A stretch of 64,000 nt of DNA from Candidatus Zixiibacteriota bacterium. Lineage in GTDB: Bacteria; Zixibacteria; MSB-5A5; WJJR01. The translations under genes and the position numbers were made by a program. The notes under the pieces were generated by a model. That model was not told where the DNA came from, made no database searches, and worked only from the letters and a program-made list of their open reading frames with translations. This document shows, piece after piece, positions 5,631 through 43,062 of this stretch; within the stretch, counting starts at the first letter, position 1, and each line of letters opens with the position of its first letter. The stretch is taken from contig DASWIS010000008.1 of assembly GCA_036397555.1 (NCBI GenBank), positions 544,206 to 608,205 on the forward strand, given 5' to 3'.

Positions 5631-6744
5631 ATGGAAGGTCTCGACACAATCAACGAAAAGCTCGAACGGCTGCGGAGGTTCCTTTGACATTGATGGTCTG
5701 CGCCGACAGATCGCCGACCTCGAAGAGCAAAGTGGATCGAGCCAATTCTGGAACGATGGCCAGGCCGCGCGCAGCACGTTGAAGCAGCTCTCGCGCGCTA
5801 AGTTTTGGGTCGTCCGCTACGATTCGTTGCAGCAGCGCCTGCAGGACACCGCAACCCTCTGGGACCTCTCCGAGGAGGAAGCGGACCAATCCGCCAGGGA
5901 CGAAGCATCCTCCGAGGCCGCCAAACTCACCGGGGATGTCCGCACATTCGAGTTTCAATCGCTGCTCTCCGGCGAAGACGACCAAAACGACTGCCTGATC
6001 ACGATCCATTCCGGCGCGGGCGGGACCGAATCATGCGACTGGGCCGAGATGCTCCTGCGCATGTACACGCGGTGGATCGAGCGTCGCGGCTTCAGCTACG
6101 ACACGCTCGACTACACTCCCGGTGATGAAGCCGGAGTCCGATCGGTCACGCTCGAAGTGCAGGGCGATTTCTCCTATGGACACTTGAAGGCCGAGGTCGG
6201 CGTGCATCGGCTGGTCCGCATCTCGCCATTCGACGCCAACAAGCGCCGTCACACGTCATTCGCGTCGGTCTTTGTCATCCCCGAGGCCGGGGAAGAAGTC
6301 GTCATCGAGATCAAGGATGAGGATTTGCGCGTCGACACGTACCGCGCCTCCGGCGCAGGCGGCCAACATGTCAACAAGACCTCATCGGCCGTGCGCATCA
6401 CGCACATCCCGACCAACATCGTTGTGCAATGCCAGACCGAACGCTCGCAGCGCCAGAATCGCGAAGCGGCGATGAAAGTCCTGCGCGCGCGGCTCTATCA
6501 GCTCGAGAAAGAAAAGGCCGACGCCAAGAAAGCCGAGATGGCGAAAGCCAAGAAAAAGATTGAGTGGGGCAGTCAGATTCGTTCTTATGTCTTTCAGCCC
6601 TACCAGATGGTGAAGGATCACCGCACCGGCGTGGAGACATCGAATGTGCAGGCGGTCATGGACGGCGACATCGACGATTTCATCGAAGGGTTCCTCAGCC
6701 ACGGACAGGCCGGAGTCATGACTGTCCCGCAGGCGGAATCGTAA
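5631..6744 (+). CDS. prfB: peptide chain release factor 2, with programmed +1 frameshift at CTT-TGA-C (5682-5688)
   Basis: Frame-0 ATG 5631 reads MEGLDTINEKLERLRRFL then TGA at 5685-5687. An internal SD GGAGG lies 3 nt upstream of CTT. The +1 frame continues into the SPF/GGQ-containing ORF 5779..6744. Confidence 0.9.
5675..5690 (+). other. RF2 autoregulatory +1 ribosomal frameshift site (GGAGG-ttc-CTT TGA C)
   Basis: The sequence ggaggttcctttgac matches the canonical prfB shift site. Confidence 0.85.
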
Positions 6745-6945: not shown

Positions 6946-7032
6946 CCGCAGCCGTACCCAAAGCGAGATCATGAGACCGAGTCCATGTCGCACACAGCAC
7001 CATCGTCACTGGATGAAGAGGCGACCGACAAT

Positions 7033-8037
7033 ATGATGAATCCCCTGCAACACATCCGCGAGCGGGCGCGACGGATCAAAGCGCGCATCGTCCTGCCCGA
7101 GGGGACCGATCCCCGCGTGATCATGGCCGCGCGATCGCTCGCGTCCGAAGAAATCGCGCAGGTCACGTTGCTGGGCGATGAACGCGCTGTTCGTCAAGCC
7201 GCCGAAGCCGAACACTTGTCTCTGCGCAAAGTGACCATCATCGATCCGGCGTTGTCGCCGCAATTGGCCGAGTATGCCGCCGAACTGCGCAAGCTGCGTC
7301 CCGACCAATTCCCGACCGACGACACGGCGCGCACACAAGCGGCCGACATCCTCTGGTATGGAGCGCTCATGGTGCGCACCGGCGCGGCCGATGGCATGGT
7401 CGGCGGTGCGGCGCACACCACCAGCGATCTGTTGCGCGCGGCGCTGCGGGTGGTCGGGCTGGCGCCGGGGATCAAGACCGTGTCGGGATACTTCTTCATG
7501 GTCTTCCCGCGATTCAACGACGAACTCAACAAGGTCTTCATCTTCGCCGACTCGGGTGTGGTGCCCGATCCCGATGCCGCGCAGCTTGCCGACATTGCGA
7601 TTTCCTCGGCGGGTGCGTATCGATTGCTCACCGGCGATGAACCGCGTGTGGCGCTGCTCTCGTTTTCGACCAAAGGCTCAGCGAAACATCCGATGCTCGA
7701 CAAGATCACCGAGGCGCTCTCGCTGATCCGTCGGCGCGATTCGGCGCTAATCTGCGATGGCGAGTTGCAGCTTGATGCGGCGCTTGTCCCCTCGGTGGCG
7801 CGCAGCAAAGACCCCGACGGCATGATTGCGGGCAAGGCCAATGTCCTGATCTTCCCCGACTTGAACTCCGGCAACATCGCCTACAAACTCGCCGAACGGA
7901 TGGCGGGCGCCAAGGCGGTCGGCCCGCTCTTGTCGGGTCTGGCCAAACCGGTCAACGATCTCTCGCGCGGCTGCTCCGCCGAAGACATCGTCAACGCCGT
8001 CGCCGTCGCCGCGGTGACCTCCCGGCCCGGGCGATAG
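7033..8037 (+). CDS. pta: phosphate acetyltransferase
   Basis: Full-length similarity to Pta (RIVLPEG..., SGN..AYK, C-terminal VNDLSRGCSAEDIVNAV). The start is taken at MMNPLQHIRERA. Confidence 0.85.
   Translation: MMNPLQHIRERARRIKARIVLPEGTDPRVIMAARSLASEEIAQVTLLGDERAVRQAAEAEHLSLRKVTIIDPALSPQLAEYAAELRKLRPDQFPTDDTARTQAADILWYGALMVRTGAADGMVGGAAHTTSDLLRAALRVVGLAPGIKTVSGYFFMVFPRFNDELNKVFIFADSGVVPDPDAAQLADIAISSAGAYRLLTGDEPRVALLSFSTKGSAKHPMLDKITEALSLIRRRDSALICDGELQLDAALVPSVARSKDPDGMIAGKANVLIFPDLNSGNIAYKLAERMAGAKAVGPLLSGLAKPVNDLSRGCSAEDIVNAVAVAAVTSRPGR
7949..8014 (+). repeat. direct repeat copy 1 (pta 3' end), matches 11583-11648
   Basis: 66 bp identical except for one mismatch to the downstream copy. 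Confidence 0.8.
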
Positions 8038-8112
8038 CTGTCCTTGGGCCTCCGCATGCGTCGCTGAGGCAGAACTGTCAGAATGTGGGACCAGTCTTCC
8101 CCGAATAGAAAA

Positions 8113-8128
8113 GTTAGGTTGACCTAAC
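8113..8128 (+). promoter_or_regulatory. palindromic operator-like site GTTAGGT-tg-ACCTAAC overlapping a -35 box
   Basis: Perfect 7+7 inverted repeat. Resembles the DtxR/IdeR iron-box half-sites TTAGGTTAG/CTAACCTAA. Confidence 0.5.
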
Positions 8129-8147
8129 AATCGTCTGGCGCTATGAT
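8119..8147 (+). promoter_or_regulatory. σ70-like promoter (-35 TTGACC, 17 bp spacer, -10 TATGAT)
   Basis: TTGACC at 8119-8124 and TATGAT at 8142-8147. Sits ~70 bp upstream of the OMP gene start. Confidence 0.5.
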
Positions 8148-8175
8148 CGCCGCGGGTTTTTCCGAAGGAACTAAC

Positions 8176-8189
8176 TTAGGCGCACCTAA
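8176..8189 (+). promoter_or_regulatory. second palindromic site TTAGG-cgca-CCTAA in the 5'UTR
   Basis: Shares the TTAGG/CCTAA half-sites with 8113-8128. Lies ~30 bp upstream of ATG 8218. Confidence 0.45.
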
Positions 8190-8217
8190 CTTTCAATCCG
8201 CCAAGGGGACATATCAA

Positions 8218-9399
8218 ATGACGAGATCAGCAATCAGGATCGTTCTCCTGAGTTTTGGGCTGACGACAATGACCGCCGTACCGGTTGGCGCACAGTTGGC
8301 TCCGGGCAGCCGACCATCAGTTCCCGGAGGAATCTATGACAAACCCTACCTGCAGAATTACAGCGGTGGCATCGCGCTGGGAGGGTACATGGATCATGAA
8401 CTCTTCGTGCAGCCCGACCATTCGACCTTCGATCAGCACCGTTTCATTCCCTTCATCTTTGCCTCCCCGACCGAATACATTCATGTCACCGCGGAGATCG
8501 AATTCGAACACGGCGGGCTGGTGAAAGGAAGCGGCACTAGTGACGGCGAGATTAAGCTGGAGTTCGCCGTCATGGACTGGGTGATCAGCGATGCATTCGG
8601 ATTTCGCGGCGGGGTGATCCTGACCCCGCTGGGAAAGCTAAACCTCACCCACGACAGCCCCTTGCAGGACCTCACCAACCGTCCTCCGGTGTCGAGCCAA
8701 CTGATCCCGACTACGCTTTCGGAATCCGGGATGGGTGTGTTCGGCGTGTTGTACCCGGGCGATTGGGTCGTCGGCTACGAACTGTACGTCGTCAACGGTT
8801 TCAACGAGAAGATCATCACCGGCGCCGGCGATCTGCGTGTGCGCGGCGGGCGCGGCTCGCAGAAGAGCGACAACAACGAAAACAAAGCCGTCACGGGCCG
8901 TCTCTCGGCTTCGCCGATGCTGGGTCTGGATGTCGGCGTGTCCGCGCACAGCGGCACCTATGACCCCGCCGGTGAGCATCGACTGACCATCGCTGCGGCC
9001 GACTGGGACTGGCAACGCGGTCCGTTCCAGTTCCTCGGTGAGGCGGCCTTGGTGAATGCCGAGATCCCGTCCGCCGAACTGCGCCTCGCGCAGACCGGTT
9101 CAGCCGACATTACCCAACGCGGTCTGTATGCTCAGGCGAACTATCACTTCGGTTTCGGCACAATCCGGCGATACCCCGAAAGCGTCTTCACCAGTATCGT
9201 GCGCTGGGATTATGTCGACTTCAATGCCGACGCCTCCGGTGACGACACACAGCAGGCGACCGTGGGCTTGAACTTCCGTCCGGTCGAACGCAGCGTGGTC
9301 AAAGCCGATTACCGCTGGGGCTGGTCTCGCGGATCCGGGACCGAATCCTGGTCGAGGCCGGACAAGCTCTTCAGCTTCTCCGTCGCCACCTACTTTTGA
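8218..9399 (+). CDS. outer-membrane β-barrel (porin-like) protein, hypothetical
   Basis: Signal peptide MTRSAIRIVLLSFGLTTMTAVPVGAQ. β-strand-rich alternating pattern. C-terminal aromatic residue (..ATYF). Confidence 0.55.
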   Translation: MTRSAIRIVLLSFGLTTMTAVPVGAQLAPGSRPSVPGGIYDKPYLQNYSGGIALGGYMDHELFVQPDHSTFDQHRFIPFIFASPTEYIHVTAEIEFEHGGLVKGSGTSDGEIKLEFAVMDWVISDAFGFRGGVILTPLGKLNLTHDSPLQDLTNRPPVSSQLIPTTLSESGMGVFGVLYPGDWVVGYELYVVNGFNEKIITGAGDLRVRGGRGSQKSDNNENKAVTGRLSASPMLGLDVGVSAHSGTYDPAGEHRLTIAAADWDWQRGPFQFLGEAALVNAEIPSAELRLAQTGSADITQRGLYAQANYHFGFGTIRRYPESVFTSIVRWDYVDFNADASGDDTQQATVGLNFRPVERSVVKADYRWGWSRGSGTESWSRPDKLFSFSVATYF

Positions 9400-9440
9400 T
9401 CCTGAACCGACTGACCGTGAACCGGATCGATCCGATTCCG

Positions 9441-10481
9441 ATGACACGACGGCGCTTTGTCGCGCTCGGTGCGATGTCGGCCCTCGGCGCGCTGATCCCG
9501 GCGCCTCTTCGGCGGCTTGTCGAGATTCCCGGCGACAGGTACTCAGACCTTCTGTGGTCTATGGGGGGCTGGAACCTGATCGAGGTGCGCGCACACACTT
9601 CGGACGGGGCCGCCGCCGCGATCTCCGTGGCCAAGGACGCCATCCGGCAAATCGATCGGACCTTCTCGGTCTTCGACCGCCGTTCCAAACTCTCTCGGAT
9701 CAATCACGACCGTGGATGTCACGTAGCCATCGACGATCAATCCATTCTCAACGGCATCGCGGCGGCGCTGCGCTGGGCGTCGGCGTCGGCAGGTGCCTTC
9801 GACCCCACAGTCGAACCGCTCATGAGGCGCTGGGGATTTCGCGAAGGCATCGACCGCGCCGTCGACGGCAATCAATCATCGTCATGCGATCATCGGGCAA
9901 TCGAACTGGATCTGGCGCGGGTATGCCTGCGGCGCGAGACACCCCAATTGCAACTGGATTCGGGCGGCTGGGCGAAGGGATGGGCGGCCGGATTGGCCGC
10001 ACAGGCCGCGCTCCGCCACGGTGCGGTCGAGGCGCTGGTCAACTGCGGCGGCGATATCGCGCGTGCCGTTGCGCACGGCAACCCGGAGTGGACCTGCGGC
10101 ATACGCAACCCGGCGGGCACGCGGCACGAAATTGTAGCCCGGGTCCGCCATATATTCCCGGCCGCGGCGACATCGGGTGACTATGAAAACTACCGGCTCG
10201 ACGACCACAACAGGCGCATCGGCCATCTGATGGATCCCCGATCACGCCGACCGGCAATCACCGATTTGTTCTCGGCGACCGTCTTCGCTCATGATGCCCT
10301 CGCGGCCGATGCGATGGCGTCGGCGCTGTTTGTGATGGGCTCCGCCCGGGCCACGCGCTGGCTTTCGGCGCATCCAGATTTCGCGGCCGTTCTCATCACC
10401 GATGCCGATTCGGGCACTGGCCTCCGCATTCAGGCGATCGGTCCGATCGATTTGACCGCCGTGCCCTTGCCGCGCGGGTAA
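9441..10481 (+). CDS. apbE: FAD:protein FMN transferase (ApbE/Ftp family), TAT-secreted
   Basis: ApbE motifs FDPTVEPLMRRWGF, LDSGGWAKGWA, ATSGDYENY, HLMDPRS. Twin-arginine signal MTRRRFVALGAM. Confidence 0.85.
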   Translation: MTRRRFVALGAMSALGALIPAPLRRLVEIPGDRYSDLLWSMGGWNLIEVRAHTSDGAAAAISVAKDAIRQIDRTFSVFDRRSKLSRINHDRGCHVAIDDQSILNGIAAALRWASASAGAFDPTVEPLMRRWGFREGIDRAVDGNQSSSCDHRAIELDLARVCLRRETPQLQLDSGGWAKGWAAGLAAQAALRHGAVEALVNCGGDIARAVAHGNPEWTCGIRNPAGTRHEIVARVRHIFPAAATSGDYENYRLDDHNRRIGHLMDPRSRRPAITDLFSATVFAHDALAADAMASALFVMGSARATRWLSAHPDFAAVLITDADSGTGLRIQAIGPIDLTAVPLPRG

Positions 10482-10487
10482 AGACGC

Positions 10488-11081
10488 ATGAGAACCCCGG
10501 TGCCCATCCTCGTGATTTTGCTCGTTCCGATGTCCTGCCCGCGCGGATACGCGCAGGAGCCGACAGAAGACGAAATCGGTACTGTGCAGGTTCTCACTTC
10601 GGAGGAGCATGCCCTGGCGGCGATCTTTCCCGATGCCGATTCCGCTCATCCCGGCGTTATTGCCCTCGATTCCATCCGCCGTGAGGCGTTACGCGCGTTG
10701 CTGGGCCGACATGTGCGTGACTCCGCGTTCGTCTATTTTGATGTCTTTGCGCAGGGACGACGTGCAGGAACAGCCGTCATCGCCGAGGAACGCGGCAAAT
10801 ACCGCCCCATCACCTTCATGGCCGGCGTTGATACCGCGCTGCGAATCGTTGATGCCCGCGTGCTGGTCTACCGTGAGAGCCGGGGGGGAGAGGTGCAGCG
10901 CACGCGCTTTCTGAAACAGTATCGGGGCAAGTCCCTCAACGACCCGATCCGCATCAACCGCGACATCATCAACATCACCGGCGCGACCATCTCGGTCAAT
11001 GCGCTCAATGCCGGAATCCGCAAAGTCCTGGCGGTCGCGGCCCTCCTGCATCCGCCGGCAACGGGGGAGGGGGGGCCATGA
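10488..11081 (+). CDS. FMN-binding domain protein with flavinylation motif (TGATIS)
   Basis: Signal peptide. The C-terminal FMN_bind-like region DIINITGATISVNAL matches the [S/T]GA[T/S] ApbE target motif. Confidence 0.75.
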   Translation: MRTPVPILVILLVPMSCPRGYAQEPTEDEIGTVQVLTSEEHALAAIFPDADSAHPGVIALDSIRREALRALLGRHVRDSAFVYFDVFAQGRRAGTAVIAEERGKYRPITFMAGVDTALRIVDARVLVYRESRGGEVQRTRFLKQYRGKSLNDPIRINRDIINITGATISVNALNAGIRKVLAVAALLHPPATGEGGP

Positions 11082-11554
11082 CCCTGCCGCGGCTGCGCAC
11101 CTGGTCGCGTCCGTTACGCCTGCTGACACTGGCTTTCGTGGTCGTCGTGGCCTTGGGGTATGCGGTCGGGCTGGCGTTCATTGTCCACAACACCGCGGTT
11201 TCCCCATCAGGGATCGTCGATCACTACCACGGCAACGAAGACCGCATGAAATTCGGCAAATCGACGGGGGAGATGCTCGAAATCGTCCACAATCACCTGC
11301 TCGGCATGGGCATGCTGTTCTTCGCGGTCGGCTTACTCTACATCGCCGCCGACACCCCGCCCCCATGGAAAACCCTGATCCCCGTCGAAACGCTCCTGAC
11401 CCTCCTGTCGACCTTCGGCGGCCTGTGGCTGATCCGCGAGGGCCTGGCCTGGGCCAACTGGCTGGTCTTCCCCTCTTCCTTCCTGATGCTGGCCGGGTAT
11501 ATTGCCATGTGCACGACGGTGATCTGGAACTGCCTGACGCCGTCGTCGAATTAG
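11078..11554 (+). CDS. 4-TM membrane protein with conserved His (HYHG, HNH), hypothetical
   Basis: ATGA-coupled to the FMN-binding gene. Four hydrophobic helices. Confidence 0.5.
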   Translation: MTLPRLRTWSRPLRLLTLAFVVVVALGYAVGLAFIVHNTAVSPSGIVDHYHGNEDRMKFGKSTGEMLEIVHNHLLGMGMLFFAVGLLYIAADTPPPWKTLIPVETLLTLLSTFGGLWLIREGLAWANWLVFPSSFLMLAGYIAMCTTVIWNCLTPSSN

Positions 11555-11582
11555 CTTGGCCCATGTCGTACCGACTTGCCCG

Positions 11583-11670
11583 GTCAACGATCTCTCACGC
11601 GGCTGCTCCGCCGAAGACATCGTCAACGCCGTCGCCGTCGCGGCGGTGGCGTCGCGACCGGGGGGGGTAG
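11583..11670 (+). pseudogene. remnant duplicate of the pta 3' end (direct repeat copy 2)
   Basis: Encodes PVNDLSRGCSAEDIVNAVAVAAVASRPGG with no in-frame stop. An 8-G homopolymer sits where the pta stop would be. Confidence 0.7.
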
Positions 11671-11685
11671 CCGATTCGTGGATTT

Positions 11686-11702
11686 GTAGGGTGGGCTCTG
11701 CC
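11686..11702 (+). terminator. GC hairpin GGTGGGC-tct-GCCCACC followed by an A/T-rich tail
   Basis: Perfect 7 bp stem followed by atttacttaatt. Placed where the original pta terminator would be. Confidence 0.4.
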
Positions 11703-11719
11703 CACCATTTACTTAATTC

Positions 11720-12382
11720 GTGCGAGATATGGCAAGCCCTGACGAGAGTGCTTGTCCCGAGCGAAGTGGAGCGATCAGGGCCACGAACCCGCTGACGAAG
11801 GACTGCAGCGCAGGTGCAATGAAGAACACTGAACTCGTAGAGAAGACCGCCGAGCTGACTCCGCACAATCGAATACAATCGAACCGGCCGTGGTGGAAAG
11901 ACGCGAAGTTCTGGATCACTACTGTCGTGTCTTTGTTGGCAGTAGCCGTAGCGTTCGATGCTCGTGACAAGGCGCTTACTGTCAACGTAAGGCTGAACAA
12001 TCTCGTTGGTGAAGAGGGTAGGACATTGCTTGTCACAGAACTTGAGCAAACTCGACGACTCCTAATAAAGACCGAAGGGGCCATCTCAGATAGCATCGAA
12101 GCTGGTCGTAATCGTGCGGGTGCGAAAGGATTTGCGGGTGGCTCAGTTCATACGTATGAGATCAAGCGAGCATTGGAGCCTCTAAGAGAATTAGTGGAAG
12201 AAGAGTGGTTCGGATTGGATCGTCGTATAGCCAAACTCTTGGCCCAGATGGGACACAGCGCAGACTCGTTGAATCAAGTTGAATCACTGGTGGACTTGAA
12301 TCAAAGCTACGCCGAACTCAGGATACAAAAGGATTCTGTCTTGTGCGTGATTCAAGTAGCCATCGAACAGTCTGGGCAGTGA
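11720..12382 (+). CDS. hypothetical single-TM protein (lower-GC gene); start may be ATG 11819
   Basis: TM helix WWKDAKFWITTVVSLLAVAVAF. The C-terminal region is helical. GC is visibly lower than in neighbouring genes. Confidence 0.4.
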   Translation: MRDMASPDESACPERSGAIRATNPLTKDCSAGAMKNTELVEKTAELTPHNRIQSNRPWWKDAKFWITTVVSLLAVAVAFDARDKALTVNVRLNNLVGEEGRTLLVTELEQTRRLLIKTEGAISDSIEAGRNRAGAKGFAGGSVHTYEIKRALEPLRELVEEEWFGLDRRIAKLLAQMGHSADSLNQVESLVDLNQSYAELRIQKDSVLCVIQVAIEQSGQ

Positions 12383-12402
12383 ATATGTGGCACTGACCTT
12401 GG

Positions 12403-13491
12403 TCAGTGGATTTGGGCTCTCCCCGCCAACTGCCCGCACGCCGCGTCAATGTCGACGCCGAAGGACTTGCGGATGTTGACTGCCGGGCAGCGCGGGTAGA
12501 GGTATTCGCGGAAGGCAAGGACGCGCTCTTCGGGCGGGCGGCGATACGGACTCTCGGGGTTGGGGTGGAAACGGATCAGGTTGATCTTGCAGGGGATGCC
12601 GTGGATGAACGTGACAAGCTGTTGGGCGTGCTCGATGGAGTCGTTGATCCCGTCCATCAGCACATACTCGAATGTGACACGACCCTTGGTGCTCTCGGCG
12701 ACCGCGATCGCCGCGTCGCGCAGTTGCGCCAATGGATAGCGCCGATTGATCGGCATCAGCTCGGACCGCAGCGGGTCATTGGGCGCGATCAGCGAGATTG
12801 CCATCTTGGCGCGCACTTTCTCCTGGGCCCATTTGCGCATCGCCGGGACCAGCCCGACAGTCGAGACCGTGACCCGATTGTGCGAAATCGCCAGCCCTTC
12901 ATCGTGCGTCAGTATGTCCAGCGCCGCCTTGACGGTCTTGAAGTTCTGCAATGGCTCGCCCATGCCCATAAAGACGACATTCGTAACGCATTCATCATCA
13001 GGGAGCAGCCGCGCTGTCGCCATCACCTGCCCGACAATCTCACCGACCGTCAGATTGCGCCGCAGCCCCATCCGCGCGGTCGCGCAGAAGACACATCCCA
13101 GCGCACACCCCGACTGCGATGAGACACAGACCGTGCGACGCCTGCGGCCATCGCGCATCAGTACCGATTCCCATAGATCCTTGCCGCTACGGAACAGCAG
13201 CTTGTCGGTGCCGTCGGGGGAATGCTGGATCGACTCGGGCTGGGGAATGTCGATCGTGAAGCGCTCGGCCAGCAGCGAGCGCAGTTCCAGGCGCAGATCG
13301 GTCATCGATTCGAAATCAGTCGCACCGCGCCGGTAGATCCAGCGGTAGAGCTGCCGCCCGCGATACGGCGCCTCGCCCAGCGACTGCATTGCTTCTTCAA
13401 GCTGCCCCAGCGACTGCCCCAATAGGTCAGTCCGAGTCGAGGGCTCGGCCGCATGGGAATGCGAGGCGATTGTTAAGGCGTTATTGTGCAT
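12403..13491 (-). CDS. rlmN: 23S rRNA/tRNA adenine-C2 methyltransferase RlmN (radical SAM)
   Basis: CALGCVFCAT radical-SAM cluster motif. RlmN N-terminal region. Start taken at internal Met (cat at 13489-13491). Confidence 0.85.
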   Translation of the reverse strand: MHNNALTIASHSHAAEPSTRTDLLGQSLGQLEEAMQSLGEAPYRGRQLYRWIYRRGATDFESMTDLRLELRSLLAERFTIDIPQPESIQHSPDGTDKLLFRSGKDLWESVLMRDGRRRRTVCVSSQSGCALGCVFCATARMGLRRNLTVGEIVGQVMATARLLPDDECVTNVVFMGMGEPLQNFKTVKAALDILTHDEGLAISHNRVTVSTVGLVPAMRKWAQEKVRAKMAISLIAPNDPLRSELMPINRRYPLAQLRDAAIAVAESTKGRVTFEYVLMDGINDSIEHAQQLVTFIHGIPCKINLIRFHPNPESPYRRPPEERVLAFREYLYPRCPAVNIRKSFGVDIDAACGQLAGRAQIH

Positions 13492-41412: not shown

Positions 41413-43062
41413 ATGCACGAAATCGAAGTCAAACGTGAGGGGCTAAACCTAAAACGGCTACTTCGTGACCGGGACGAACGCGTCCTGGAGCGGAAGGTGA
41501 AAGCGCAAAACACCCTCTGGCAAGAAGCATTAGATGATTGGATGGAATTATTCACAAAGTACACTTGGATGTCGAAGGATGGACAGCAAACCGTGCTGTC
41601 GTCAATCCTGTTGAACGGGATACGCAAGCCGGCAAAGGCGGATTGGGACTCACTCAAGGACAATTCGGAATTCTCGGAATCTGAGCCGCGTAAGCTGGAC
41701 CCCGTTCGACTTCCTCCAATGCCTGGGCGCCCACCAGGGAAGATACCAAAAGCCAACGAATCGAGTATTGTGGACAGGCTATCACTCCTAGACAGGTTGA
41801 TCCCCTCTAGGAAGCGACTCCGACAGCAGGCTATCAATCGACGTCGCGAACTGTTGAATCTTGAATCAGAGAGCGCCCGGTTAGCTGCTGAGCAAGACAT
41901 GAAGGCGCTGCACAGAGATTGGGAGAGTGAATGTGCCGCAATCCGGACCAACGAAGAGAAGGCCCTTCAGCAATCGCTGCGGGAATGGCAGAATAGACGC
42001 GCAGCGTTCATTCTCGACCGCACTAACCTTAATGTAGAAATTGACAGGAGAAGAAAGAACTACGTTAAGGGCGAGCCAGAGGGGGTCGAGGAATTCGCTG
42101 AGCTTGTGCTCTCGCGCTCAATGTACCCCCTTTGTATCCCGCGGGATTTCGACTTCCAATATGACGCCACCAATAAGTGTCTCCTCGTGAATACGATATT
42201 ACCTGCACTGGAAGACATACCACGCACCGACAGTAAAGGGAAAGTTTTGTTTTCAGATCGGGTCTTCCTGTCGCTTTATGACTCTGTCACCTACCAGATT
42301 GCAATCCGCACATTGTTCGAGTTATTCCATGCGGACGAAGCGAATGTCATCGGTGCCATAGTCCTGAGCGGGTGGGTCAACACTTACGACAAGGCAACGG
42401 GCAAACCGATAAGACCCTGCATTCTATCTGTTCACGCATCGAAAGCTGAATTCTCAACCTTCGACCTCGGGCATGTCGATCCCAAAGCGTGCTTCAAGGC
42501 GCTTAAAGGTGTCGGCAGTTCTAAGTTGCACACGATGACTCCGATCATTCCTATAGCAACGTTTGACAAGAGTGATAAGCGTTTCGTTTCACCTATCGAC
42601 GTCGTCCAAGGAATCGATGAATTGTCGAACTTAGCAGCAATGGATTGGGAGGACTTCGAACATCTGGTGAGAGAGATATTCGAGCAAGAGTTTGCGCAGA
42701 ACGGTGGAGAAGTGAAAGTGACGCGAGCCAGTCGCGATCGCGGTGTCGATGCCATCGCATTCGACCCCGATCCCATCAGGGGCGGAAAGATTGTGATTCA
42801 GGCCAAGAGGTACACACGAACGGTTGATGTATCAGCAGTTCGTGACCTCTACGGCACTGTACTCAATGAAGGCGCGACAAAAGGCATCTTGGTGACAACT
42901 GCCGACTATGGACCCGATGCATACGAATTCGCAAAAGGGAAGCCCTTGACCCTTCTAAATGGTGGCCACCTTCTTCATCTTTTGGAAAGACACGGGCACA
43001 AAGCACGCATTGATTTGAAGGAAGCACGGGAATTGAACAAGGATGAGATTGACCCGAATTAG
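41413..43062 (+). CDS. Mrr-cat (PD-(D/E)xK restriction-endonuclease-like) domain protein with ~400 aa unknown coiled-coil N-terminal region
   Basis: C-terminus WEDFEHLVREIF..GVDAIAF..IQAKRY..GILVTTADY matches the Mrr catalytic domain. GC ~50% by eye against ~65% flanks. Confidence 0.7.
   Translation: MHEIEVKREGLNLKRLLRDRDERVLERKVKAQNTLWQEALDDWMELFTKYTWMSKDGQQTVLSSILLNGIRKPAKADWDSLKDNSEFSESEPRKLDPVRLPPMPGRPPGKIPKANESSIVDRLSLLDRLIPSRKRLRQQAINRRRELLNLESESARLAAEQDMKALHRDWESECAAIRTNEEKALQQSLREWQNRRAAFILDRTNLNVEIDRRRKNYVKGEPEGVEEFAELVLSRSMYPLCIPRDFDFQYDATNKCLLVNTILPALEDIPRTDSKGKVLFSDRVFLSLYDSVTYQIAIRTLFELFHADEANVIGAIVLSGWVNTYDKATGKPIRPCILSVHASKAEFSTFDLGHVDPKACFKALKGVGSSKLHTMTPIIPIATFDKSDKRFVSPIDVVQGIDELSNLAAMDWEDFEHLVREIFEQEFAQNGGEVKVTRASRDRGVDAIAFDPDPIRGGKIVIQAKRYTRTVDVSAVRDLYGTVLNEGATKGILVTTADYGPDAYEFAKGKPLTLLNGGHLLHLLERHGHKARIDLKEARELNKDEIDPN

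Follow-up and report, generated by a model that had tools for sequence, protein, structure and literature searches.

How does an operon come to stand between a working gene and a dead copy of that gene's own end? The question is raised by the pta locus of a 64-kb stretch of DNA (64,000 nucleotides, hereafter the window), whose host is an uncultured Zixibacteria species. The duplicated stretch comprises the last 28 codons of pta, the phosphate acetyltransferase gene, and the dead copy stands behind the four-gene operon that follows the intact gene. A preliminary description, made from the letters of the window, had seen in this operon a mobile cassette that integrated itself into the 3' end of pta. 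The anatomy was rightly recognized: the insertion lies in the pta 3' end, the replacement tail comes from the inserted side, and the displaced dead end is found 3.6 kb downstream. The idea that the cargo is a self-integrating mobile cassette is not supported, no recombinase having been found, its codon usage being host-like and relatives carrying copies elsewhere without pta repeats. The repeat is real. It is a recombination scar of a fairly ordinary kind, at an insertion hot spot that varies between strains, and not demonstrably a mobile element. The features of the repeat are listed below; the sister strain referred to is about 98% identical to the strain of the window.

6985-8037, forward strand: pta, phosphate acetyltransferase gene, intact (PF01515, E=7e-113; identical protein on JGI contigs).
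7948-8009, forward strand: 62-nt core of repeat copy 1 (pta codons PVNDLSRGCSAEDIVNAVAV followed by GC), identical in the sister strain.
8010-8037, forward strand: tail 1, the last nine codons and the stop of the working pta (AAVTSRPGR*), 16-17/24 identical to tails 2 and 3.
11580-11641, forward strand: 62-nt core of repeat copy 2, a pta pseudogene fragment, with one private single-nucleotide polymorphism (SNP) of synonymous type per strain lineage.
11642-11670, forward strand: tail 2 (AAVASRPGG), with an 8-G run and an out-of-frame TAG, established from the sequence and by assembly comparison.
11678-11707, forward strand: 30-nt stretch resembling the rlmN 3' end (12406-12428) by local alignment, containing a terminator-like hairpin (11690-11706).

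The direct repeat extends over 84 nt at 92% identity, from 7948 to 8031 for copy 1 and from 11580 to 11663 for copy 2, with a start-to-start distance of 3632 nt. Its core is identical between the two copies at 61 of 62 positions. A 66-bp repeat with a single mismatch had been described at first; the repeat stands, its size and mismatch count do not, the correct values being 62 bp with one mismatch or 69 bp with two. Likewise, copy 2 is present, and the interval initially assigned to it (11583-11648) is about 2 nt out of register. With a tolerance of up to 3 mismatches, the window contains no more than two copies (chance expectation 0), and each conspecific locus also has two. A generic multi-copy repeat was rejected on these counts. 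As in autonomous integrative elements, direct repeats from the 3' end of the target gene flank the insert, the pta open reading frame (ORF) is kept intact through the insert-proximal copy, which ends in AAVTSRPGR*, and the distal remnant is displaced. The other end of this ORF is read in several ways, with alternative start codons chosen by the gene callers and a possible start at 7033 (MMNPL...).

Copy 2 has no upstream ORF and its stop codon is frame-shifted. Its translation reads PVNDLSRGCSAEDIVNAVAVAAVASRPGG, the pta counterpart being ...AAVTSRPGR-stop. An 8-G run (11660-11667) precedes TAG (11668-11670); a run of 7 G would place this stop in frame. The 8 G are present in each of the seven window-type assemblies reaching the run, and the eighth G is therefore no read error; the continuation as AAVASRPGG beside an 8-G homopolymer, with the stop out of frame, had been correctly read. 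The terminator-like hairpin also exists, as GGTGGGC-TCT-GCCCACC at 11690-11706 with a weak T tail, although it has no extra stability compared with shuffled sequence over 91 nt (z=-0.74). No tRNA or tmRNA that could act as a target is present in the 64-kb window, and no known RNA family of Rfam is matched in 7800-12500 at E<=1.

Seven window-type assemblies, obtained from different samples of JGI and ENA and 99.8-100% identical, show this structure with these joints, and the arrangement is also found in two assemblies of the sister strain (L094 and L102). The contigs supporting it include some of 0.19-0.96 Mb; the locus is carried, for example, by Ga0299906_10000001 (965 kb), by Ga0395802_0000021 (189 kb) and by an 880-kb contig of the NCBI MAG (metagenome-assembled genome) with HEX9750434.1. 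Every conspecific contig reaching the region carries the cassette, so that no presence/absence polymorphism is seen; every member of the pta cluster at 90% identity has tail 1, and no cassette-free strain of the species is among those sampled. A metagenome scan with a 32-nt core pattern returned the sister strain only, with neither an empty site nor a donor. The best non-conspecific pta is 74% identical, with no close relative in the databases, and the best match of a genome-collection scan with pta (53% identical) is useless for comparison at the DNA level.

The two copies differ in a way that splits the repeat into a core and a tail. There is one mismatch in the 62 nt of the core and there are eight in the following 25 nt (Fisher p=1.3e-4). 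Six of these eight fall at third codon positions (p=0.02), and the tails have therefore evolved as working pta ends in separate lineages. Copy 2 had been called a decaying pta remnant. It is indeed non-functional, but it is not a simple decaying duplicate, its tail being a different, synonymously diverged allele. The sister strain provides a third tail. Its left joint, its cassette and its core copy 2 are as in the window, and so is its right-hand joint (...ACCGACTTGC|CC), which is followed by GCA GCG GTG ACG TCA AGG CCG GGC ACC CAA ACT TAG. This tail 3 encodes AAVTSRPGTQT*, with the stop intact and in frame, and tail 1 is present in the sister strain as well, with 2 SNPs. Tails 1, 2 and 3 are mutually identical at 16-17 of 24 positions, to be compared with 11-18 of 24 for pta tails of different genera, the reference relatives having a Pta protein only 68-73% identical. 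The cores, for their part, agree at 60-62 of 62 positions within the species and at 46-56 of 62 between relatives. Core copy 2 shows one private difference from copy 1 in each strain; both cores were therefore identical (62/62) in the common ancestor of the strains. The window and the sister strain are homologous up to 11641/11642 and again from 12419, a position inside rlmN. Repeat position 62/63 is a hard recombination boundary used by at least two independent events.

What surrounds the repeat indicates where such events take place. Two genes lie to the right of copy 2, one of them convergent with pta.

11819-12382, forward strand: gene of a 187-aa ORFan in a strain-variable islet, of low GC and without family match.
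12403-13422, reverse strand: rlmN (Pfam assignment), convergent with pta, its last 4-5 codons lying in the strain-variable segment.

In L105, a relative with a 70%-identical pta, the genes pta and rlmN are convergent and their stop codons overlap in CTAG (L105:3505-3515), with no intergenic DNA. The downstream genes are those of the window (response regulator, PHB_acc_N and Zip), and this junction is an empty site. In L089, from a Zixibacteria metagenome-assembled genome (MAG) with a 68%-identical pta, both flanks are syntenic and the gap holds Porin_O_P and PhoU genes; these were considered as orthologues of the OMP (outer-membrane protein) and ORFan genes of the window, and rejected for lack of any similarity. 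The pta-rlmN gap is thus filled by the cassette and the ORFan in the window, by the cassette and a CBASS (cyclic oligonucleotide-based antiphage signaling system) in L094, by the porin and PhoU genes in L089, and by nothing in L105. Conserved flanking core genes with differing content between them are what a hot spot displays, and the variable segment also ends inside conserved blocks of both flanks, at 11641/11642 and 12419. Homology stops at the former and restarts inside rlmN, and the RlmN C-termini therefore differ: GRAQIH* in the window, GRVRVAG* in L094, GRTRN* in L089 and GRA* in L105. The swapped segment carries both a pta-like and an rlmN tail, which is expected from a flank-anchored exchange and not from a pta-specific integrase.

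The ORFan has a GC of 0.50 and a GC3 (GC at third codon positions) of 0.52, compared with a GC3 of 0.70-0.80 for host genes, with a codon-usage distance of 0.30. It has no match in Pfam, PADLOC or NCBIfam, and its homologues, sought as a clue to the donor allele, were not found outside this species. The sister strain (L094:14652-16100, and also L102) has, in place of the ORFan, a minimal type I CBASS made of a cyclase (PADLOC E=4.5e-97) and a 2TM (two-transmembrane) effector (E=1.1e-53). Because a CBASS fills the same slot, the ORFan is a candidate for a role in defence or abortive infection. It has an N-terminal hydrophobic stretch with the look of a single membrane helix. The ORF of the CBASS effector in L094 has no stop within the islet and continues antisense to rlmN up to 16818, as if the right joint of the islet had removed the stop codon.

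On the left side of the islet, the 30 nt resembling the rlmN end align with a score of 26, a score that 21 of 5000 dinucleotide shuffles reach, as do about 1% of stretches taken at random from the window. Positions 11678-11707 are thus probably a relic of the old pta/rlmN junction, although this similarity is only suggestive. Taken together, core 2, tail 2 and the rlmN relic suggest a fossil of that junction. Similar relics after tail 1 and tail 3 do not reach significance, and no rlmN remnant is detectable at the protein level, the stretch being too short.

The cargo between the repeats consists of the following elements.

8114-8189, forward strand: cargo promoter and putative operators, with the palindromes TTAGGTTGACCTAA (8114-8127) and TTAGGCGCACCTAA (8176-8189).
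8218-9399, forward strand: outer-membrane beta-barrel protein (OMP), 393 aa, with signal peptide; weak and marginal Porin_O_P match (PF07396).
9396-10481, forward strand: ApbE flavin transferase (PF02424, E=9e-55; NCBIfam ApbE match below cut-off).
10488-11081, forward strand: secreted FMN-binding protein (FMN, flavin mononucleotide; PF04205, E=1e-7; RnfG-like in NCBIfam, below cut-off).
11078-11554, forward strand: four-helix His-rich membrane protein, Aq_1264_TM (PF27139, precomputed Pfam assignment).

This set of OMP, ApbE, FMN-binding and His-rich transmembrane genes with a promoter of its own agrees with what had been described. The promoter is of the sigma-70 type (10/12 match), with TTGACC at -35 (8119-8124), TATGAT at -10 (8142-8147) and a spacer of 17. 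Gene calls vary for ApbE (361 and 306 aa, possible start 9561) and, among pipelines, for the OMP (starts at 8218, 8269 and 8143, for 393, 376 and 418 aa). The ATG at 8218 is preceded by a GGGGA ribosome-binding site 8 nt upstream and yields a signal peptide. Homologues of the OMP number more than 1000, the best non-conspecific one being 66% identical.

On sequence grounds, this cargo looks like an ordinary chromosomal operon of this lineage. Its GC3 and codon usage are host-like, unlike those of the ORFan. Its proteins share 49-66% identity with those of the MAG GCA_054680595.1, within the 47-75% measured for housekeeping genes on the flanks. L091, L092/L093 and L109 have all four genes, in unchanged order, at other loci, and the Aq_1264_TM gene is the last of the operon in all relatives seen. 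In L092, the order is MscL, repressor, operon, repressor and CorA. At these other loci, a DtxR/MntR-family (Fe_dep_repress) gene lies upstream and no pta fragment is found nearby. The cassette thus exists without repeats in three related genomes, beside a DtxR/MntR-family gene, an arrangement that the preliminary description had itself named as contrary to its proposal, and the same element was not encountered at the same target. Moreover, L092 and L089 come from one MAG (GCA_054680595.1), in which the operon is located elsewhere and the pta/rlmN gap is differently filled.

The cargo promoter contains two copies of the 14-nt palindrome TTAGGN4CCTAA, which are the only ones of the window (0 expected). 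The palindrome is also found upstream of the homologous operons and of the neighbouring DtxR/MntR-like genes in L091 (L091:9247 and 9812), L092 (L092:9968) and L109 (L109:7186, 7750 and 7819), and across 110 fetched loci it is nearly confined to these positions upstream of the operons and repressor genes. Its occurrence before DtxR/MntR-family genes suggests autoregulation, and the palindrome is a predicted operator. The scores of the relatives' DtxR/MntR-type regulators lie below the NCBIfam cut-offs. No repressor gene is present in the window, and the operon would thus have kept its putative operators and not the repressor gene.

Besides a signal peptide, the FMN-binding protein has the flavinylation-type motif DIINITGATIS, so that ApbE is accompanied by a secreted FMN_bind substrate with an [S/T]GA[S/T] motif, as expected of ApbE flavinylation. 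The domains, this motif, the conserved operators and the neighbouring repressors of the relatives are the reasons why the cargo probably provides an extracytoplasmic redox protein, flavinylated by ApbE, that would serve in the acquisition of a metal (Fe or Mn). In the available sections of Meheust et al. 2021 (PMC8238504), ApbE/FMN-binding clusters are tied to extracytosolic iron reduction and assimilation. The operon resembles the flavinylation clusters of those sections in combining ApbE, a secreted [S/T]GA[S/T] FMN-binding substrate and a small membrane partner, and in its link with metal uptake, which is suggested here by DtxR/MntR-type regulators and operators. Five transmembrane classes are given in the same sections (NapH-like, MsrQ-like, PepSY-like, DsbD and NQR/RNF-like), and the OMP and Aq_1264_TM architecture seen here falls outside these five. 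The locus offers an example of a putatively metal-regulated ApbE/FMN-binding operon parted from its repressor gene with its predicted operators kept.

Domain searches confirmed that no integrase is visible between the repeats, as had been noted. Recombinase, transposase and excisionase domains were found neither there nor among the genes called in the first 18 kb, nor in ORFs of at least 200 aa elsewhere in the window. The cargo is limited to OMP, ApbE, FMN_bind and Aq_1264_TM, with no tyrosine or serine recombinase of its own, and neither the CBASS islet nor the ORFan islet contains a recombinase. Att-type direct repeats around an insert devoid of integrase are indeed what characterizes CIMEs (cis-mobilizable elements). 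A cognate integrase-bearing element for the same att site was not found in the 64 kb, the fetched loci or viral contigs, and scans of viral contigs for a pta-end mimic, with a degenerate DNA pattern and with a 67-aa C-terminal query, gave no match. No pta remnants were seen in more distant relatives, and nothing relevant was found in the literature about pta as attB.

Several processes could have produced this locus. Homology-anchored recombination at the hot spot, without element-encoded integrase, is the reading that we favour, and we give it an even chance of being correct. It explains why the cores are identical and the tails as far apart as those of different genera, why the boundary is shared and both tails are replaced, and why the cargo looks native and an integrase is missing. 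The missing integrase and the replacement of both gene tails would point, indirectly, to RecA-type homology rather than to a site-specific enzyme. Site-specific integration, the main rival, is a possible but doubtful alternative. The insert would then be a degenerate or satellite (CIME-like) element with a pta-end mimic as attP, a tyrosine or serine recombinase having acted in trans or been lost, and the two repeat copies would be attL and attR. Much of the anatomy is what such an enzyme leaves behind: repeats from the target 3' end, a gene restored on the insert-proximal side with a distal remnant, an abrupt onset of homology at 7948/11580, the 62/63 boundary reused by the cassette and by the islet swap of the sister strain, and a tidy insert in which the promoter, operators and four genes leave no more than 76 nt and 25 nt of further DNA. 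However, neither the insert, nor either islet, nor the 64 kb contains an integrase, an excisionase or another mobility gene, and the insert has no space for arm-type sites or integrase remnants. A third repeat copy is absent after the ORFan and CBASS islets alike, relatives carry this compositionally native cargo away from pta and without repeats, every sampled strain has the cassette and no empty conspecific site was seen, and no pta-end mimic occurs on the viral contigs scanned. A pta-specific integrase would also leave unexplained why the swapped islets replace the rlmN tail too, and a further step of homogenisation is required if an attP mimic matches the core at 62/62 while its tail has diverged by 30%. 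A more speculative reading, which we consider improbable, is that the 62-nt pta block (perhaps also that of rlmN) is the attachment site of an unrecognised trans-acting system delivering integrase-free cassettes with replacement tails. Such a system would supply a metabolic operon with its own promoter as well as CBASS and ORFan defence islets, and would swap tails at a zero-spacer convergent junction.

An origin in situ is very unlikely. Here a long target duplication (staggered break with fill-in, or tandem junction duplication) would have been followed by drift of copy 2, and the identity of the cores in the common ancestor with one private SNP each, the decay-like frameshift in the G tract, and the order new pta end, cassette, old pta end, rlmN relic, islet and rlmN, which suits two successive target-duplicating insertions, all agree with it. 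Drift nevertheless predicts uniform mismatches, not 1/62 in the core and 8/25 in the tail with most changes at third positions, and the third tail of the sister strain is equally distant with its stop intact in frame. A simple tandem duplication of the junction was rejected, since it predicts the rlmN relic before the pta relic, the opposite of what is seen, as well as uniform divergence. An assembly artefact (chimeric join, or collapsed or expanded repeat) comes to mind with a metagenome source, repeats being typical misassembly points, but the identical joints in seven window-type and two sister-strain assemblies make it scarcely credible. Homology-anchored recombination has its own difficulties. 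A 62-nt arm is short for RecA-type exchange, the duplicating outcome requires a circular intermediate or an illegitimate second joint, neither of which is observed, and the core/tail boundary is common to at least two events, exactly as a site-specific enzyme would give. Among the sampled genomes neither a cassette-free conspecific strain nor a donor allele was found, and the similarity of the rlmN relic (p about 0.004-0.01) is suggestive only. The integrase search, finally, covered 64 kb, and beyond 18 kb only ORFs of at least 200 aa, whereas the longest contig seen for this genome measures 0.96 Mb. All these points weigh against the favoured reading.

Under homology-anchored recombination, for which we infer both the pathway and the order of events, DNA would have been added at the junction of the convergent core genes pta and rlmN, with the repeat as its scar. 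In a relative (L105) this junction has no spacer, so that any insertion there cuts a gene, and therefore only insertions that bring or recreate a gene end survive. The left anchor would be the last nucleotide-conserved block of pta (...AACGCCGTCGCCGTCGC), a block also common to L106, and the right anchor the conserved 3' block of rlmN. Foreign fillings would be imported from related lineages, short unconserved tails hitch-hiking with them. One of these events would have been additive instead of replacing, through a circular intermediate or one illegitimate joint, which would give a duplicated core standing between the cassette and the fossil junction. The present end of pta would be an imported one (tail 1), followed by a lineage-typical chromosomal operon with DtxR/MntR-type operators and without a repressor gene. 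The older pta end, with core copy 2, tail 2, the frame-shifted TAG and the rlmN relic, would have been stranded dead and may help to terminate the operon. To the right of this dead end, the segment would still be swapped between strains (ORFan or CBASS), each allele with its own pta-like and rlmN tails.

Insertions into the 3' end of a metabolic gene are known for e14 and phage 21 at icd of E. coli, which encode an integrase and excise. As in these cases, the inserted DNA of the pta locus provides an alternative, mostly synonymous 3' end, the native end being left as a pseudogene fragment. Unlike them, it has no integrase, phage genes or evidence of excision, its operon looks native and its repeat is split into core and tail. 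CIMEs, which are cis-mobilizable, att-flanked and devoid of integrase, are found with ICESt1 and ICESt3 at the fda 3' end of Streptococcus thermophilus. The integrase-free insert between direct repeats of a housekeeping 3' end is similar, and so is the possible accretion of units at the site. In contrast to CIMEs, the third att copy is absent beyond the islet, and rlmN, the gene on the opposite side, receives a new end from the neighbouring islets as well. To our knowledge, no cognate integrative and conjugative element (ICE) or integrase is known for this lineage.

Integration hot spots between core genes provide another comparison, such as gnd beside the O-antigen locus and dexB/aliA around the pneumococcal capsule loci. 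Constant flanks, variable content reaching both gene ends, defence genes in the cargo and the lack of an integrase are shared with these. In contrast, the flanks of the present locus are convergent with zero spacer, each allele must carry both gene tails, and the 62-nt core was duplicated in one additive event, an outcome that simple allelic replacement does not yield. The locus is thus a displaced gene-end scar at an insertion hot spot, somewhat unusual for its zero-spacer junction and for the serial swapping of tails on both sides. It offers a clean, well-dated example of DNA added between convergent genes that share their stops, neither of them being killed, the gene end being duplicated or replaced and a junction fossil being left behind, and it identifies the pta/rlmN junction of Zixibacteria as a hot spot whose content varies between strains. 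Pseudo-3'-ends of this sort can lead annotation and island-prediction tools to call att sites without a demonstrable mobile element.

Two other genes of the window deserve mention. A gene with an Mrr_cat restriction-endonuclease-like domain (41413-43062, forward strand) has a clearly foreign composition (GC 0.51, GC3 0.57) and is probably another acquired defence gene. Upstream of pta, prfB (release factor 2, RF2; 5632-6744, forward strand) carries the classical programmed +1 frameshift site GGAGG TTC CTT TGA C at about 5675-5688, and because of this frameshift the listed prfB ORF (5779-6744) lacks the N-terminus.

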